From contig OY759599.1 in the NCBI GenBank assembly GCA_963662465.1, positions 4,832,001 through 4,896,000 on the forward strand: a stretch of DNA of 64,000 bases. Reading direction: 5' to 3'. This stretch comes from Desulfatiglandales bacterium. Its GTDB lineage: Bacteria > Desulfobacterota > DSM-4660 > Desulfatiglandales > Desulfatiglandaceae. This document shows positions 1-7,493 of the stretch, piece after piece (position 1 is the stretch's first letter; each line of letters opens with the position of its first letter). A program made the position numbers and the translations under genes. The notes below the pieces were generated by a model. The model was not told the origin of the DNA and did not search any database. It saw only the letters and a list, made by a program, of their open reading frames with translations.

Positions 1-1
1 G

Positions 2-274
2 GGCGCCGGGACGCTTTCGGTCAGCGTATTGGAAGAAAAAGACCATTACCGGGCGACCATTGAAGACGATGGGAACGGCATTTGCGAAAAAGATCTGAAA
101 AAGATCTTCGACCCTTTTTTCAGCACCAAGGACAAAGGAAGCGGCCTGGGGCTTGCCATTGTCCGCAATATCATGGAAGGCCATCACGGCCGCATATGGA
201 TTGAGAGCCGGCATAAAGAATCCTCTGCCGAAAAAACGGGGACCAAGGTCTTTATCCGACTGCCAAAAGAATAA
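2..274 (+). CDS. Sensor histidine kinase, C-terminal HATPase_c fragment (5' end outside the window)
   Basis: Frame open from base 2; G1/F/G2 boxes IEDDGNGI, IFDPFFSTK, GSGLGLAIV; ends 16 bp before the response regulator. Confidence 0.9.
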   Translation, partial: GAGTLSVSVLEEKDHYRATIEDDGNGICEKDLKKIFDPFFSTKDKGSGLGLAIVRNIMEGHHGRIWIESRHKESSAEKTGTKVFIRLPKE

Positions 275-290
275 AACGGAGCCCAATATC

Positions 291-1655
291 ATGGAAACCA
301 TCCTGATTGTTGATGATGAAAAAAACTATCTCGTGGTACTGGAGGCCCTTCTAGGCGCTGAAGGATATGAAATCGTAACGGCCAGGGATGCTAAAATGGC
401 CATCAGCATCATTCGTGAAGCGGATCTCGATCTGGTTGTCACCGACATGAAAATGCCCGGGATGAGCGGCATGGAACTTCTGGAAAGATGCAAAAAAATT
501 AAGCCTGAAATACCCGTCATCATGATGACTGCCTTTGGCACCATTGAAATGGCGGTTGAGGCCATGAAAAAACAGGCCTATGACTACATTCAGAAACCCT
601 TTGAAAATGAACAGCTTAAACTGACGGTGAAAAAAGCGCTGGAAAATCACCGGTTGGTCAAGGAGAACAAGCGACTGACGGAGGCCCTTGCCGATCGATT
701 CAGATACGGCAATATGGTGGGCAAGAGCAAACCGATGATCAAAGTATATGATCTCATCGACAAGGTTTCCAGTTCCAAAGCATCGGTCCTCATTACCGGG
801 CCATCGGGCGCCGGAAAGGAACTCATTGCCAAAGCCATTCATTACCAGGGTTCCAGAAAAGAACAGCCGCTCATTGCCATCAATTGCGGCGCCTTGACGG
901 AAACCCTTCTGGCCAGTGAATTGTTCGGACATGAAAAGGGCGCGTTTACCGGCGCCATCGCCTTAAAAAAAGGGCGGTTTGAATTGGCGGATGGCGGCAC
1001 AATCTTTCTGGACGAGGTGGGCGAGATGCCGCCCTCGCTTCAGGTAAAGCTTCTGCGGGTCCTTCAGGAAATGGAGCTGGAACGGGTGGGGGGAACGCGA
1101 ACCATCAAGGTAGATGTGCGCGTGCTTTCAGCCTCAAATCGGAATATCAAGGAGGATGTGGCCAAAGGGATATTTCGTGAAGACCTCTACTATCGCTTGA
1201 ATGTTATCCACATCGATACGCCGTCCCTTCAGGAGCGTACGGACGATATTCCCCTCCTGGTAAAGCATTTTATCGAAAAATTTCAAGAAGGCGAGACCCT
1301 CAAAACAATCGAGTTGCGACCCGAAGTGTGGAAAGCACTCTATTCACACCCCTGGCCGGGGAATGTCAGGGAGCTGGAAAACGTCATTGAAAGAGCCCTG
1401 GTATTGCATTCGGGCGGCGTCATTACCCTGGATGATCTGCCGAAGACACTCATAGAAACGGAAACCGATTTCGATGTGGAGCGATTTGTCCCCCCCCACA
1501 TCCCCCTGCAAAAAGCCATGGAAGAAATCGAAGAACGGCTGGTACGGAGAGCCCTGGCCCAGTCCAACAATGTTCAGTCCCATGCGGCCAAGAGTCTGGG
1601 GATTACCAAAAGCCTGATTCAACACAAAATGAAGAAGTACAATATCACCCTGTAG
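291..1655 (+). CDS. Sigma54-dependent (NtrC-family) response regulator, REC-AAA+-Fis HTH
   Basis: [15 protein letters not shown] (phospho-Asp), GPSGAGKE, intact [22 protein letters not shown]-terminal HTH; ATG at 291 rather than ORF-track 153. Confidence 0.95.
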
Positions 1656-1657
1656 GG

Positions 1658-1751
1658 GTAAAAGGTCTTGTACCAAAGATATCATACATTATTTCATATA
1701 TTTACGTTAAAACAACTGTTTTTGACCGTTTTCAGGTACAAAATCTTGTAC
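1658..1751. promoter_or_regulatory. Putative enhancer (UAS) sites GTACAA-N4-TTGTAC
   Basis: Perfect palindrome GTACAAAATCTTGTAC at 1736-1751 and one-mismatch copy GTAAAAGGTCTTGTAC at 1658-1673, upstream of a sigma54 promoter. Confidence 0.6.
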
Positions 1752-1848
1752 TATCTCAGGAGTTCATAAAAAACCGGAAATGAGGGTTGGCACAAGTTAA
1801 ACTCTTAAAAAACAATGGGTTATAAAAAAAGTTGCCCCCCATATTTTT

Positions 1849-1865
1849 TTGGCAAGCTTATTGCA
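1849..1865 (+). promoter_or_regulatory. Sigma54 (-24/-12) promoter
   Basis: TTGGCAAGCTTATTGCA: GG 1851-1852 and GC 1863-1864 separated by the canonical 10 bp; predicted +1 near G1876. Confidence 0.8.
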
Positions 1866-1875
1866 GTAAAGAAAA

Positions 1876-1946
1876 GCCATATAGAGTTAAAAAAATTACT
1901 CTTTCCTCCTAAGAAACCAACCTCGCTTTGCGGGGTTGGTTTTTTT
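1876..1946 (+). ncRNA. Putative sigma54-dependent small regulatory RNA (~71 nt)
   Basis: Promoter directly upstream, 5' hairpin AGAGT...ACTCT, single-stranded TTCCTCCT, intrinsic terminator; no ATG or RBS within the transcript. Confidence 0.65.
1914..1946 (+). terminator. Rho-independent terminator, probably bidirectional (sRNA / era)
   Basis: AAACCAACCTCGC-TTT-GCGGGGTTGGTTT stem ending in a T7 tract; the minus strand reads out into TTTCTT. Confidence 0.85.
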
Positions 1947-1978
1947 ATGCCTTCTGAAATCTGCAATGACTTCACTGG

Positions 1979-2032
1979 TTCCCCACGCTCCGGCGTGGGA
2001 GTGCGTAGAGGCGAAAGATTTTTCGCCCCGAC
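1979..2032. repeat. Two adjacent REP-like palindromes
   Basis: CCCACGC-TCCG-GCGTGGG followed by GTAGAGGCGAAAGATTTTTCGCCCCGAC (GTAG-headed imperfect palindrome). Confidence 0.55.
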
Positions 2033-2046
2033 ACTCTTCACTGCCC

Positions 2047-2931
2047 TTAATACCCCAACCGTTTCAATGCCCGTGTATCCTTGCTCCAGTTTTTCTCTAG
2101 GCGGACCGCCAAATCAAGATAAACTTTTGCACCAAGCAGCGATTCCAACTCAAGCCTGGCGGAACGGCCGATGGCCTTGATCATCTTTCCCCCTCGGCCA
2201 ATGAAGATGCCCTTTTGGGAATCACTTTCAACATGGATCCCGGCTGCAATGGATACCAGTTTTTTTTCAGGCACATCCTCAATTTTTTCAACGGTTACCG
2301 CACATGAATAAGGCAGTTCCTGCCGGAGGTAATGATAAATTTTCTCCCGAATGATCTCGGAAACCATGAAAGCCTCGGATTGATCGGTGTTCATGTCCGG
2401 CGGGAAAAACTGCGGTCCTGGCTTTAACCGCAATTCCAGTTCATGAAGCAATTCATCCACACCATCGCCCTTGAGCGCTGAAATGGGAATCATAACGTCA
2501 AAAGGAAATCGTGCCCCGTAGTCCGCCAGCATGGGGAGAATCCTTTTTTTTTCAACCTTATCGATTTTATTGATGGCCAGCAATCGTGGTTTTGCCATGA
2601 CCTTCAGACTTTCCATAATGGACGGAATGGCGGGATCTTTACGGGCGCCGGCCTCAACCATCATCAGGATGATATCCACTTCATGAAAAGCGGCAAAAGC
2701 GGCTTTGACCATGCTTTTGTGCAGCGCCGTCCGCGTCCTGTGTATCCCCGGGGTATCCATAAACACCATCTGGCAGTCATCCTGGTGAAAAACGCCCAGG
2801 ATACGATTCCTCGTGGTTTGCGGCTTAGGGGATACAATGGCTAATTTCGTTCCCACAATGCGGTTTAACAATGTAGACTTTCCCACGTTCGGTGGGCCAA
2901 TAATGCCGATAAAACCGGATTTAAAACTCAT
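2047..2931 (-). CDS. era: GTPase Era
   Basis: GPPNVGKST, PQTTR, DTPG, NKID, C-terminal KH domain with IGRGG. Confidence 0.97.
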   Translation of the reverse strand: MSFKSGFIGIIGPPNVGKSTLLNRIVGTKLAIVSPKPQTTRNRILGVFHQDDCQMVFMDTPGIHRTRTALHKSMVKAAFAAFHEVDIILMMVEAGARKDPAIPSIMESLKVMAKPRLLAINKIDKVEKKRILPMLADYGARFPFDVMIPISALKGDGVDELLHELELRLKPGPQFFPPDMNTDQSEAFMVSEIIREKIYHYLRQELPYSCAVTVEKIEDVPEKKLVSIAAGIHVESDSQKGIFIGRGGKMIKAIGRSARLELESLLGAKVYLDLAVRLEKNWSKDTRALKRLGY

Positions 2932-4654: not shown

Positions 4655-5681
4655 AATATTCCTGATGTCTAAAATATGCATCCTTTCGGGTTTCATATAA
4701 GCCCAAGCCCTTTTCTAAGTCAAGAAAATCCCTCAAAATGAGAATTCGTAAAGGGCAGCCGGTAGAGGCAGGAGTGGAATGGCGCCCAGCCAGCGGCGGA
4801 TCTTTTTTTTCGTGCCGCCTTCAAAACAGCGTTCAGATGAACTTATCAAAAATGTTTTCGGCTTACGCCATCGGGAAAACATGTGAGCGAAAGAGCCATA
4901 GGTAGATTGGAACCTATGCCTTCTCTATCACGCAAATACTATCCCTGCTGACTTCTTTTGGCAAATTCATTACCAAAAACTTGAACATCGAGTACAAAGG
5001 AAATTGTTATCCATATCATTACCACAAAAGGTGGGATATTGAAATTGCTTAAAATGAAGTAAAAACCCATCAGTGTACAACTCAAGGGTCATATACCGAC
5101 CATTTTCAGAATTAAACGCGCTGACTTTGTAAAACTAGTCCCGGAGATATTACCGCCGTTTGCCCATTGACACACAACGAAAAATTCCATACAGTCCTAA
5201 TTAAGAAGAGGCGTTTTTATATGAAGAGAAAGAGGTATAGCATTACACTTATACTCATTCTTTAATTTCTGTTGTTCAGCGTGCCAATCCTGGCGCTTGC
5301 TCTTGGTAATGCCAACGAGAATACATCCGGGGTAACAATTACTACAAATAAAAATCAAAAACGGCTCCATTTCAGATCTTACCCCACGACGATTATAGCT
5401 CACGCGGGGGAGGGGGGGGGAGGTCGGCGGTAGGGTGGGACAAAATTCTCTCGAAGCTCTAGATCGCAATTACGCAAAAGGGCATCGCTATTTCGAAATT
5501 GACTTCTGCTAGACATCCGATGACCGCCTGGTTTTAATTCATGACTGGAAAAGGACTTTTAGAGAATTATTCGACGACGCGAAAAAGAAGCCGTCGCTTG
5601 AACGGTTCGAATCCATGAAAATGAAACACGGTATGACTCAGATGTCCCTTGCTTCTCTTTTTCTCTGGTTATCGAAACATA

Positions 5682-7493
5682 ATGACGCTCATATTATTAC
5701 CGATGTGTCGGACTTTTTTCAATAAAGCGGGGCTATTAAGCTATTTAATCATTATTTCAAACTTTATTTTTCTTGTAGTATATCGGGCTTACGGGGTTTG
5801 GTCGTTTGTTTTCCGAAACACAGGTCGAAATGCGCCGGTTTTCTTGAACATCGTCAATAATGACGCCATCGTTATCGGTGCAGTGTTCTTACTGCTTCAT
5901 TTCGGTTTTTTTTATACATTTATAAAATCAATAAGATGGGTCGCTTATCTGTTGAAAGCGGTTGTGATTTTCATTACATTTCTTTACGCTATTGATGTGC
6001 TGCTGCTATTAAAATTTTTCAAGCGTCTTCATTACCATGATATTTTGAAATACGGCGCAGAAATTAAAGCCGGGCTTTCGTTCCTTATTCCTATGAAATC
6101 GCTTTTCTTCAATCTTTTTTCCACCGAGACGATCGGAATCATTCTTGCCGGCATCTTCGCTTTACTGCTCATTTCTTTTATGATGTTTCAAGTCACTGGA
6201 CGGCACAAAAAAATACATGGAAAACTACTCTTAATCTGTGGGCTTTGTTTTTCGATTTTCAGTTTTGTCCCACTGGATCACATTTTTCTTCATGGATGGG
6301 CCTATCAAAATTTATTTGCCTACAACATGCCCAAGGGTTCGGAAGAACCATATTCCAGTAATTTTATCGCGGCGCTGAAAGAAAAGCGGGAGAAAAAAAA
6401 GGAAATATCTGAAGGGCTGGGCAAACGGATTAACATAATGCTGGTGATTGTCGAATCACTTTCATCCTGTCAGAGTCAATTTTTCTCGGGCATCAACAAT
6501 TACACACCACATCTCGACGCCATTTCAAAAGAAAATCTGAGCTTTACGAACTTTTTCGCAAATGGCTTCACCACCGAACATGGCCTGATTGCGTTGCTTC
6601 TTGGCGAAGTTCCCTTACCAATCGTGGGCACGGGACAGCACTGTGCCTTCGAAGGTTTTTATCAAAAAGAGTCCGTAGCCGCTTTTTTGAACCGATTGGG
6701 CTATAAAACGTGTTTTCTAACCACTGGCGACTTGGGTTTCACGAACAAGAGAACATGGCTTGCGCGAATAGGTTTTGATGATGTTGAGGGAACTGAAACA
6801 CCTTTCTATAAAGAATGGCCGCGGTTCGCCTTCAACGCCGCACCGGATGAAGCCCTATTTGCCTATGCTATAAGAAAGATAGGAAACTTGAACTCGGATC
6901 AACAGCCCTATTTTATGGTTCTTGAAACAGTCACAAGTCATTTGCCCTTCCTTGATCCAGAGGGAAAATCCAACACAGAGAAAGCGGTGATTACTTATGT
7001 GGACCGGCAATTGGGAGTTTTTTACAAAAAGCTTGAGGATTGCGGTTTTTTCAGTAACGGCGTCCTTATTATCACAAGCGATCACCGGCTTATGGCGCCA
7101 CTTTCAAAGGCCGAAATGGATCGTTATGGGAATTCTGCCTTTGCCAGAATTCCGATGGTAGTAGCATCGGGCGGCAAGAAAAAGGGAAAGATCGATGCAT
7201 GCTTTCAACAAACGGATTTGTATTCTTCATTGAAATGGTTTGTTTCTGACCAGTATGAAAAGGACCCGTGGAACGGCAATTTTTTGCGCCCAGAACCAAC
7301 GCCGCCTTTCTGCATTTTAAAAAACATGGCTAATAACTACGATCTGGTGTATACGCGATGCGGTCCGGAAGAAGGATACATAAAACTCCAAGGAGACGGG
7401 ACGTACTTATGCCAGGGACGAATCAAGACGGAAAAGGTTAGGCTGATAATTGAAAAAATCAGCAGTGATAGAATCTTTCGCGATCAAAAATAA
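5682..7493 (+). CDS. LTA synthase / phosphoglycerol transferase (sulfatase-fold) family membrane protein
   Basis: About 5 N-terminal TM helices, then IVESL, GFTTEHG, TSHLPF, ITSDH metal/nucleophile motifs; start uncertain. Confidence 0.8.
   Translation: MTLILLPMCRTFFNKAGLLSYLIIISNFIFLVVYRAYGVWSFVFRNTGRNAPVFLNIVNNDAIVIGAVFLLLHFGFFYTFIKSIRWVAYLLKAVVIFITFLYAIDVLLLLKFFKRLHYHDILKYGAEIKAGLSFLIPMKSLFFNLFSTETIGIILAGIFALLLISFMMFQVTGRHKKIHGKLLLICGLCFSIFSFVPLDHIFLHGWAYQNLFAYNMPKGSEEPYSSNFIAALKEKREKKKEISEGLGKRINIMLVIVESLSSCQSQFFSGINNYTPHLDAISKENLSFTNFFANGFTTEHGLIALLLGEVPLPIVGTGQHCAFEGFYQKESVAAFLNRLGYKTCFLTTGDLGFTNKRTWLARIGFDDVEGTETPFYKEWPRFAFNAAPDEALFAYAIRKIGNLNSDQQPYFMVLETVTSHLPFLDPEGKSNTEKAVITYVDRQLGVFYKKLEDCGFFSNGVLIITSDHRLMAPLSKAEMDRYGNSAFARIPMVVASGGKKKGKIDACFQQTDLYSSLKWFVSDQYEKDPWNGNFLRPEPTPPFCILKNMANNYDLVYTRCGPEEGYIKLQGDGTYLCQGRIKTEKVRLIIEKISSDRIFRDQK

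Follow-up and report, generated by a model that had tools for sequence, protein, structure and literature searches.

A predicted sigma54-dependent small RNA downstream of an NtrC-type response regulator in Desulfatiglandales and its complementarity to a porin translation start

In the genome of a Desulfatiglandales bacterium, a sigma54 promoter faces a transcription terminator between the gene for an NtrC-type response regulator (RR) and era. Is a small RNA made from this short stretch, what activates it, and on what does it act? The original prediction, made from the letters of the DNA, had proposed a base-pairing translational repressor controlled by the upstream histidine kinase and RR. We analyzed this proposal in the window, a stretch of 64,000 nucleotides (G000:C1:4832001-4896000) from a genome of 8.16 Mb that is 100% complete (G000), and in homologous loci of related genomes.

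A predicted small RNA downstream of a response regulator gene

The window opens with the 3' end of a gene for a sensor histidine kinase with HisKA and HATPase_c domains (positions 1-274, forward strand; whole gene G000:C1:4830811-4832274), followed on the same strand by the RR gene (291-1655), whose sigma54 response regulator product has REC, AAA and Fis HTH domain matches and is the inferred activator. Just upstream of the kinase gene, and divergent to it, are minus-strand genes (G000:C1:4827608-4830738) that we take from their translations to be DnaA-like and radical-SAM-like. The interval 1657-1946, 3' of the RR gene, contains a pair of palindromic enhancer sites, then an IHF-like site, a sigma54 promoter and a predicted ~70-nt RNA that ends in a covarying terminator; the locus extends beyond what had originally been described. 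The distal palindrome (GGTAAAAGGTCTTGTACC, 1657-1674) and the proximal one (GGTACAAAATCTTGTACT, 1735-1752) scored 20.7 and 27.0 bits, respectively, in a weight matrix. Between enhancer and promoter, on the forward strand, the IHF-like site (AAACAATGGGTTA, 1810-1822) matches the IHF consensus, against which all such sites in this study were scored. The canonical -24/-12 element noticed originally is present on the forward strand at 1850-1865 (TGGCAAGCTTATTGCA), with GG at 1851-52 and GC at 1863-64, which places the predicted +1 near G1876. A TGGCAC at 1788 was considered as a second promoter and rejected, as it is without a -12 GC and unconserved. A gene with an RpoN box was found in G000.

The small RNA is predicted to span 1876-1946 on the forward strand (~70 nt, both ends inferred). 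It would consist of a weak 5' hairpin (1883-1902), a pyrimidine tract that we call the seed (1895-1912) and overlaps the 3' arm of that hairpin, and an intrinsic terminator (1914-1946) with its stem at 1914-1926/1930-1942 and a U-run at 1940-1946. A 72-nt RNA folded at -25.8 kcal/mol (z -4.99), and none of 200 shuffles folded equally well. In this predicted fold UUCCUCCU (1903-1910) is single-stranded, in agreement with the unpaired linker that had been proposed. The claim that no ORF lies between promoter and terminator stands for conserved genes and fails for open frames as such: a mechanical ORF list holds a 121-codon frame (1815-2180) that spans the small RNA, and this is not a conserved gene, because the length of the region varies freely among homologs. 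Thus, the locus combines a -24/-12 promoter, an upstream enhancer, a terminator and the absence of a conserved ORF, as would a small RNA activated by sigma54 and an enhancer-binding protein (EBP).

As predicted, era is convergent (2047-2931, minus strand); it passes its NCBIfam cut-off and is the last gene of rnc - radical SAM - era. It is a mere neighbor outside the RNA system, and other neighbors take its position in many homologous loci; in the window's lineage the terminator at 1914-1946 probably also ends the era operon. Window positions 1955-2046, between terminator and era, are an insertion that is absent from a close relative (L002) and contains, besides a small hairpin, a ~20-nt word that recurs about 13 times elsewhere in the genome. 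Eight metatranscriptome runs were screened and contained 5-7% of the words; four were assembled, and their RNA-library contigs, which carry neither strand nor transcript ends, extend across the promoter or continue into era and do not resolve a discrete RNA.

Enhancer sites, conservation and range

We examined 30 loci chosen by RR orthology alone, the top 30 of 51 matches in 61 genomes of the order. The conservation of promoter and pyrimidine core 3' of the RR gene, on which the original prediction had staked itself, was borne out: a sigma54 site and a pyrimidine run ending in CTCCT were present in 29 of the 30, and an exact 14-mer in 22. The sole miss was a locus whose contig stops 146 nt past the RR gene (L028). 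An IHF-like site was found in 24 of the 29 loci with a promoter. The 5' AGAGU/ACUCU hairpin, present in the window as had been noted, occurred in only 11 of the 30 loci, all within the window's genus, and is thus genus-specific rather than a feature of the family. Lengths of homologous RNAs were about 55-80 nt. In an alignment of 63 sequences, conservation was confined to promoter, seed and terminator. The terminator covaried in all 13 of its pairs, each with double changes, and 86.9% of its alignment cells were paired, a value matched by none of 500 shuffles, in sequences selected partly for the presence of a hairpin. The strong terminator noted originally ~70 nt from the promoter is confirmed.

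A covariance model built on this alignment matched 48 of the 51 RR-positive genomes of the order at E<1e-7, many of them belonging to its training set, and the three misses were at contig ends; none of the 10 RR-negative genomes of the order was matched. All but one of the 48 matches lay at most 500 nt from the RR gene. Near-identical loci in named records were from Desulfatiglandales MAGs. One pattern search gave at least 120 matches, about half of them chance ones in unrelated phyla, and was used for the collection of members, not for range. No Rfam 15 family reached its gathering score in window positions 1500-2300, in 12 homologous loci or in 10 distant loci, the best score in the window stretch being 26.9 against a gathering score of 54 bits; within this search, the RNA is outside the described families, as had been suspected.

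The enhancer sites link this RNA to the RR. Across 50 aligned upstream regions, the proximal site lay at -112 to -118 from the TGGC of the promoter and the distal site at -189 to -196, 76-80 bp apart, and in 48 of the 50 the proximal site agreed with the consensus at 10 or more of 14 positions. The top two sites of the matrix in all 8.16 Mb of G000 are the window pair, which argues for a regulon with a single target. The only other twin site in the genome sums to 19.7 bits compared to 47.8 bits for the window pair, and among strong twin sites the window pair alone has a sigma54 promoter. A search that ignored the seed and used enhancer and promoter returned 46 rows; among the 16 loci with a second enhancer of at least 5 bits, 15 had a CU-rich short RNA and a hairpin downstream (two judged by eye), 11 of them already known and four new. 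Single enhancer-like sites also occurred 5' of protein genes in other lineages (L335, L347, L348). In four genomes of the families f43/f81, the RR belongs to the same clade and has a different C-terminal domain, winged-helix-like by eye; the Fis HTH was absent from the RR in the two of these genomes that were scanned, and full-length homology of the kinase was confirmed in two of the four. All four RNAs of these genomes have ~11-bp direct repeats, read by eye, in place of the palindromes. The enhancer evidently changed where the RR swapped its DNA-binding domain. NtrC-type regulators with a winged-helix-like domain for the Fis HTH (L275:2949-4415, L276:3116-4519, L277, L278) are an unusual EBP architecture in their own right.

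We further followed the system across the phylum, in a sample of 151 genomes. The RNA model matched 32 of these and the RR was found in 53; the RR was present in 30 of the 32 RNA-positive genomes compared to 23 of the 119 RNA-negative ones, counts in which kin are not independent. The RNA lay 3' of the RR gene in 10 of 28 additional RR loci. In all 16 f57 genomes the RNA has moved away from the RR gene and kept its enhancers, and likewise in the Desulfovibrionaceae. There, 30 loci were returned, eight of them seen earlier, and 21 of the 22 inspected had promoter, pyrimidine tract and hairpin; most had one or two enhancer-like sites, and some were tandem arrays. Neither the narrow pattern (11 of 121 Desulfovibrionaceae genomes) nor a model based on sequence alone (60 of 121 at E<=0.02, with many weak matches) gives a true prevalence. 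Seeds vary by lineage and are nearly all pyrimidines; they are low-complexity sequence, and the genome counts include related, hence non-independent, genomes. The RNAs with the same enhancer architecture appear to be related as one family across the phylum, with homology between classes resting on architecture more than on sequence. The system does not appear to reach Myxococcus, where the best RR match is a non-orthologue. Together, the unique twin enhancers and the co-occurrence of RR and RNA favor the proposed control by the upstream kinase and RR.

Several further loci came to light. Extra model matches, tandem or dispersed, were found at G495:C5:59692-60837, G533:C21:47961-48847, G481:C6, G519:C1, L019 and L039; G495 has up to four, and the single copy inspected there carries a promoter and enhancers of its own. 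Two f57 loci (L178 and L181, about 1500-1585) hold a paralog of the RNA with the same twin enhancers and a seed changed to CUUCCCAUCCU, which suggests another target. Another sigma54 short-RNA family, distinct from this one, occurs in f57 genomes (L175, L177, L179, L180, L182, L183, L185, L186 and L187, about 1500-1590; variant L188); its members share a conserved ACCAUACCCUCUU core and have a short terminator and, upstream, a repeat of their own of the TGCGAAAA type. No Rfam match at gathering score was obtained in the seven loci scanned. In G000 itself, a sigma54 promoter is followed by a CT-dinucleotide run and, 85-105 nt downstream, a terminator at G000:C1:711561(+), 3969373(-) and 3981659(-), possible short sigma54 RNAs. 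In f11/f76 genomes with the RR, longer C-rich RNA-like stretches lie 3' of an enhancer and sigma54 promoter (L326 and L327, about 1600-1720) and are possibly an extended form of the RNA family. Three other loci (L036, L037, L098) have a sigma54 promoter and then a similar CU-rich tract, but longer and different 3' parts.

Pairing of the seed with a porin translation start

We next asked what the seed might pair with, using 6,963 translation starts of G000 predicted by a rough gene caller. One target was an outlier, at -28.8 kcal/mol compared to -21.9 kcal/mol for the next start, a gap of 6.9; for 12 shuffled seeds the best energies were -21.9 to -26.7 kcal/mol, with gaps of at most 2.6. The pairing comprises 18 contiguous pairs (one of them G-U) over the Shine-Dalgarno sequence (SD), the spacer and the AU of the start codon. 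The anti-SD seed of the original prediction does cover the SD in this pairing and, at about 18 nt, is longer than the anti-SD core. The target gene (G000:C1:4927319-4928593, plus strand) lies 31 kb beyond the end of the window and encodes a protein of 424 aa with a signal peptide and a final Phe, which scores above the Pfam cut-off for Porin_4 and has a weak match to DESULF_POR1. On either side of the porin gene (L355:232-2352, 5181-5723) there are three paralogs in tandem and a fourth relative with RFEQVDK heptad repeats.

Homologs of this porin were found in 21 other genomes of 60. The site retained pairing at -23.9 kcal/mol or better in 16 of the 21; of the other five, one paired at -19.9 and one at -12.4, and three were without a resolvable start. 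Paralogous porins pair more weakly with the seed. In Desulfovibrionaceae, where the porins are of the DESULF_POR1 type (five genomes), the seed differs and the porin site differs with it: the genome's own seed and porin form 16 Watson-Crick pairs in G131 (with one of ten paralogs) and in G551, 15 in G475 and 13 in G570, with partial pairing in G508. Porins were found in 15 of 17 genomes with a known RNA, from ten families; the porin profile A3 found none in G324 or G041. When all 15 RNAs were compared with all 15 porin columns, 11 paired best with the porin of their own genome, the covarying complementarity to a porin start that a porin-repressing base-pairing small RNA would have. In the remainder the own porin ranked 14th in G049 (a weak porin match), 4th in G222, 7th in G570 and 3rd in G508, where two starts were mis-picked. 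Against a null of 3,457 SD-bearing starts of G000, 12 of the 15 RNAs had 0-14 starts that paired better than the own porin, and the remaining three had 86, 92 and 3,058. An exact-complement target search in the families f6/f43/f81, f33 and f57 (the last with five genomes) gave no shared target; a porin profile search later found porins in 8 of 10 genomes. No match to the Hfq (PF17209) or CsrA families was found in G000.

Could the RNA instead act broadly on SD sequences and repress many exported proteins, the porin being just one of them? We consider this improbable. Among the top 100 strong-SD targets of G000 there are 23 signal-peptide proteins by a crude predictor, above a background of 14.6%, several porin paralogs pair partially, and in some lineages other starts pair equally well or better, as in G214, where the start of an unrelated periplasmic protein reaches -28.7 kcal/mol compared to -20.8 for the genome's own porins. 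However, G000 has the one clear outlier described above, and perfect matches of 15-17 bp outside the SD core follow the porin across families.

The best explanation, and one we hold to be likely, is that the RNA is a sigma54-driven, Hfq-independent repressor of porin translation controlled by the neighboring kinase and RR. The membrane kinase would phosphorylate the adjacent NtrC-type RR, which would bind the two palindromes about 115 and 193 bp upstream, as their uniqueness and co-evolution suggest, and open the sigma54 promoter with the help of IHF bending. The product would be a ~70-nt RNA consisting of an unstructured pyrimidine seed and a terminator, a structure backed by covariation. The seed would form a duplex of 13-19 bp over the ribosome-binding site of the porin mRNA, reaching the start codon in the window's lineage, and this duplex would lower porin translation; it is long, so the proposal needs no Hfq. 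Of the base-pairing translational repressor predicted originally, the pairing thus gains in support from the covariation of the seed with the porin ribosome-binding site, and the repressing sign is read from the position of the duplex. The circuit most likely adjusts the level of the porin to an extracytoplasmic signal.

The regulators in Desulfovibrio and comparison with known systems

The kinase and RR appear to correspond, as orthologues, to DVU3221/DVU3220 of D. vulgaris and Dde_3598/Dde_3599 of D. alaskensis, as judged through a Desulfovibrionaceae locus (L272, genome G508) and the published properties of the two species. The RR has its reciprocal best hit in this locus (50% identity, 459 aa, GSFTGA) and falls with it in one clade with support 0.987; the kinase matches the adjoining kinase at 34% over residues 21-485 (E 1.5e-88), and its extracytoplasmic part is weakly sCache-like, which is a lead only. 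The gene order in G508 is aspB-pgi-HK-RR with a divergent sfsA, where the names aspB, pgi and sfsA are presumptive. The L272 RR agrees in length, GSFTGA motif and pgi-HK-RR order with DVU3220. In published data, DVU3222 is pgi, DVU3221 the kinase and DVU3220 a gene of 1,380 nt for 459 aa with GSFTGA (PMC10102598, PMC3333781), and D. alaskensis sfsA and Dde_3596-3599 likewise fit the G508 order (PMC4045070).

These regulators have been scored as essential. DVU3220, DVU3221 and rpoN are so listed in both transposon libraries (PMC10102598, Suppl. Table 5), and Dde_3598 and Dde_3599 are in essential classes, without central insertions, in Data Set S2 of PMC4045070, where the gene downstream is dispensable; polarity therefore does not explain the essentiality of the RR. 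It is speculative that the essentiality of DVU3221/DVU3220 and RpoN routes through the RNA. Tentatively, the RNA could be the essential output of this system, the most conserved sigma54 two-component system of Desulfovibrionaceae, and without the RNA the major porin would be overproduced to a lethal level. In the relevant part of PMC5686591, DVU0799 is described as a very abundant, probably essential major porin, and the term small RNA is not used. The same facts would fit an RNA that stabilizes or activates the porin mRNA, the system being essential because the porin is. We regard this as very unlikely, since the duplex covers SD and start codon, which in established small-RNA biology blocks initiation, and no inhibitory structure in the porin mRNA that the RNA would open was identified.

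DVU3220 has also been presented as the most conserved RR of Desulfovibrio and a likely nitrogen regulator, reported to shift the promoter of the ammonium transporter DVU1231 by EMSA (PMC3333781), so the RR might be NtrC, with amt/glnB as its main targets and the RNA a side branch or the product of another activator. The single enhancer-like sites 5' of protein genes (L335, L347, L348) would fit this reading, as would supplement 2 of PMC4641369, which lists a near-identical HTH under DVU3305. We find it hardly credible, however. In these reports, the DVU1231 promoter was tested on a functional guess only, DVU3220 has no DAP-chip data (PMC3333781) and no motif was obtained for it (PMC4641369). 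The window's RR scores 433.5 bits, below the NCBIfam ntrC cut-off of 558.6 (TIGR01818), no second twin enhancer site occurs in G000, and the enhancer changes with the binding domain of the RR. The DVU3305 label we take to be a slip, because DVU3305 is described as a Lon-linked, non-essential protein of 451 aa with GAFSGA; the DNA-binding domain given there fits a DVU3220-type protein, and the labels of the table may be shifted. A last possibility is that there is no separate RNA at all: the hairpin would terminate the RR and era operons from both directions, and everything else would be read-through. This would suit the A- and T-runs found to either side of the stem in many homologs and the contigs that cross into era, but is vanishingly improbable given that promoter, enhancers, seed and hairpin move together to RR-free and era-free sites, duplicate in tandem, and carry a seed that covaries with a distant gene.

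The proposed porin repressor can be set beside several known systems. Sigma54 small RNAs controlled by a two-component system or an EBP are established in GlrK/GlrR-GlmY, CbrAB-CrcZ and LuxO-Qrr; of these RNAs, GlmY and CrcZ act as protein decoys. The window's RR scores below the NCBIfam cut-offs of both GlrR (359.9 against 763) and LuxO (377.6 against 800). The porin-repressing small RNAs MicA, MicC, MicF, RybB and VrrA of Gammaproteobacteria pair at translation starts; their expression depends on sigmaE or OmpR/Rcs-type factors, and most of them require Hfq. The window RNA is like them a short RNA that would pair at a porin translation start; unlike them, it would be driven by sigma54 and an EBP, in a genome without detectable Hfq and with duplexes of 13-19 bp. 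MmgR/suhB (RF00519) and ar14 share a UUUCCUCC-type motif, a likeness limited to the anti-SD word, and membership in these families was rejected at 14.7-22.1 bits against gathering scores of 41-58.8. We also rejected a PyrR or other attenuator, because the score was 26.9 against 54 bits and the same strand carries no gene downstream; a CsrA sponge, since GGA repeats are missing and no CsrA was found; and, as no ORF is conserved, an antisense peptide gene or a type I antitoxin.

Closest in layout is Pxr, a sigma54 small RNA 3' of its own NtrC-type activator and kinase, in a host without hfq and with a C-rich single-stranded element (PMC5568312, PMC5684412), but Pxr is 108 nt with three stem-loops and the window RNA has one. 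Pxr (RF01812) had no match in G000 at its gathering score of 80 (positive control, 122.8 bits in G579), and the RR is not an orthologue of PxrR/Nla19, to which it is 40% identical without a reciprocal best hit and outside the RR clade. From the same phylum, the D. vulgaris sigma54 ncRNAs of DVU0679 (Dv_sRNA2), DVU0653, DVU1419 and DVU2359 are likewise EBP-driven, two of them just downstream of their own RR, according to PMC3333781 and PMC4641369. The Dv_sRNA2 system was nonetheless rejected, as the published motifs of DVU0679, DVU0653 and DVU1419 differ from the palindrome here; the DVU3381 motif resembles it, with a spacer of 3 bp compared to 4 bp, and DVU3220, to which the window's activator corresponds, is listed with no ncRNA and no motif. 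DseA is reported to be a sigma70 SAM riboswitch (bioRxiv 10.1101/803072) and was rejected. D. alaskensis G20, whose species has orthologues of both kinase and RR, expresses two sigma54 small RNAs (starts 86651- and 3627439+) that are unannotated and have no assigned function (section 7 and Data Set S3 of PMC4045070). One of the two could be a member of the RNA family, and, if so, would supply evidence of its expression. In the full-text literature searched here, which includes few subscription papers and not the D. vulgaris transcript map, no description of the RNA family, its enhancer or the porin link was found. On this analysis, the small RNA would resemble Pxr and GlmY in its control and MicA and MicC in its action, and it is in none of the families tested.

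If the RNA is indeed this essential output, it would serve across the phylum as an Hfq-free counterpart of the sigmaE-MicA/RybB envelope circuit, a presumed nitrogen regulator would be reassigned and the essentiality of rpoN would be explained. With a proposed binding site, RNA product and target for DVU3220, the reason why sigma54 is essential becomes directly testable in two genetically tractable strains. The RNA and its porin would also offer a rare example of co-evolution between a seed and its target over ten families, and they point to the way in which sulfate reducers may tune the permeability of their outer membrane.
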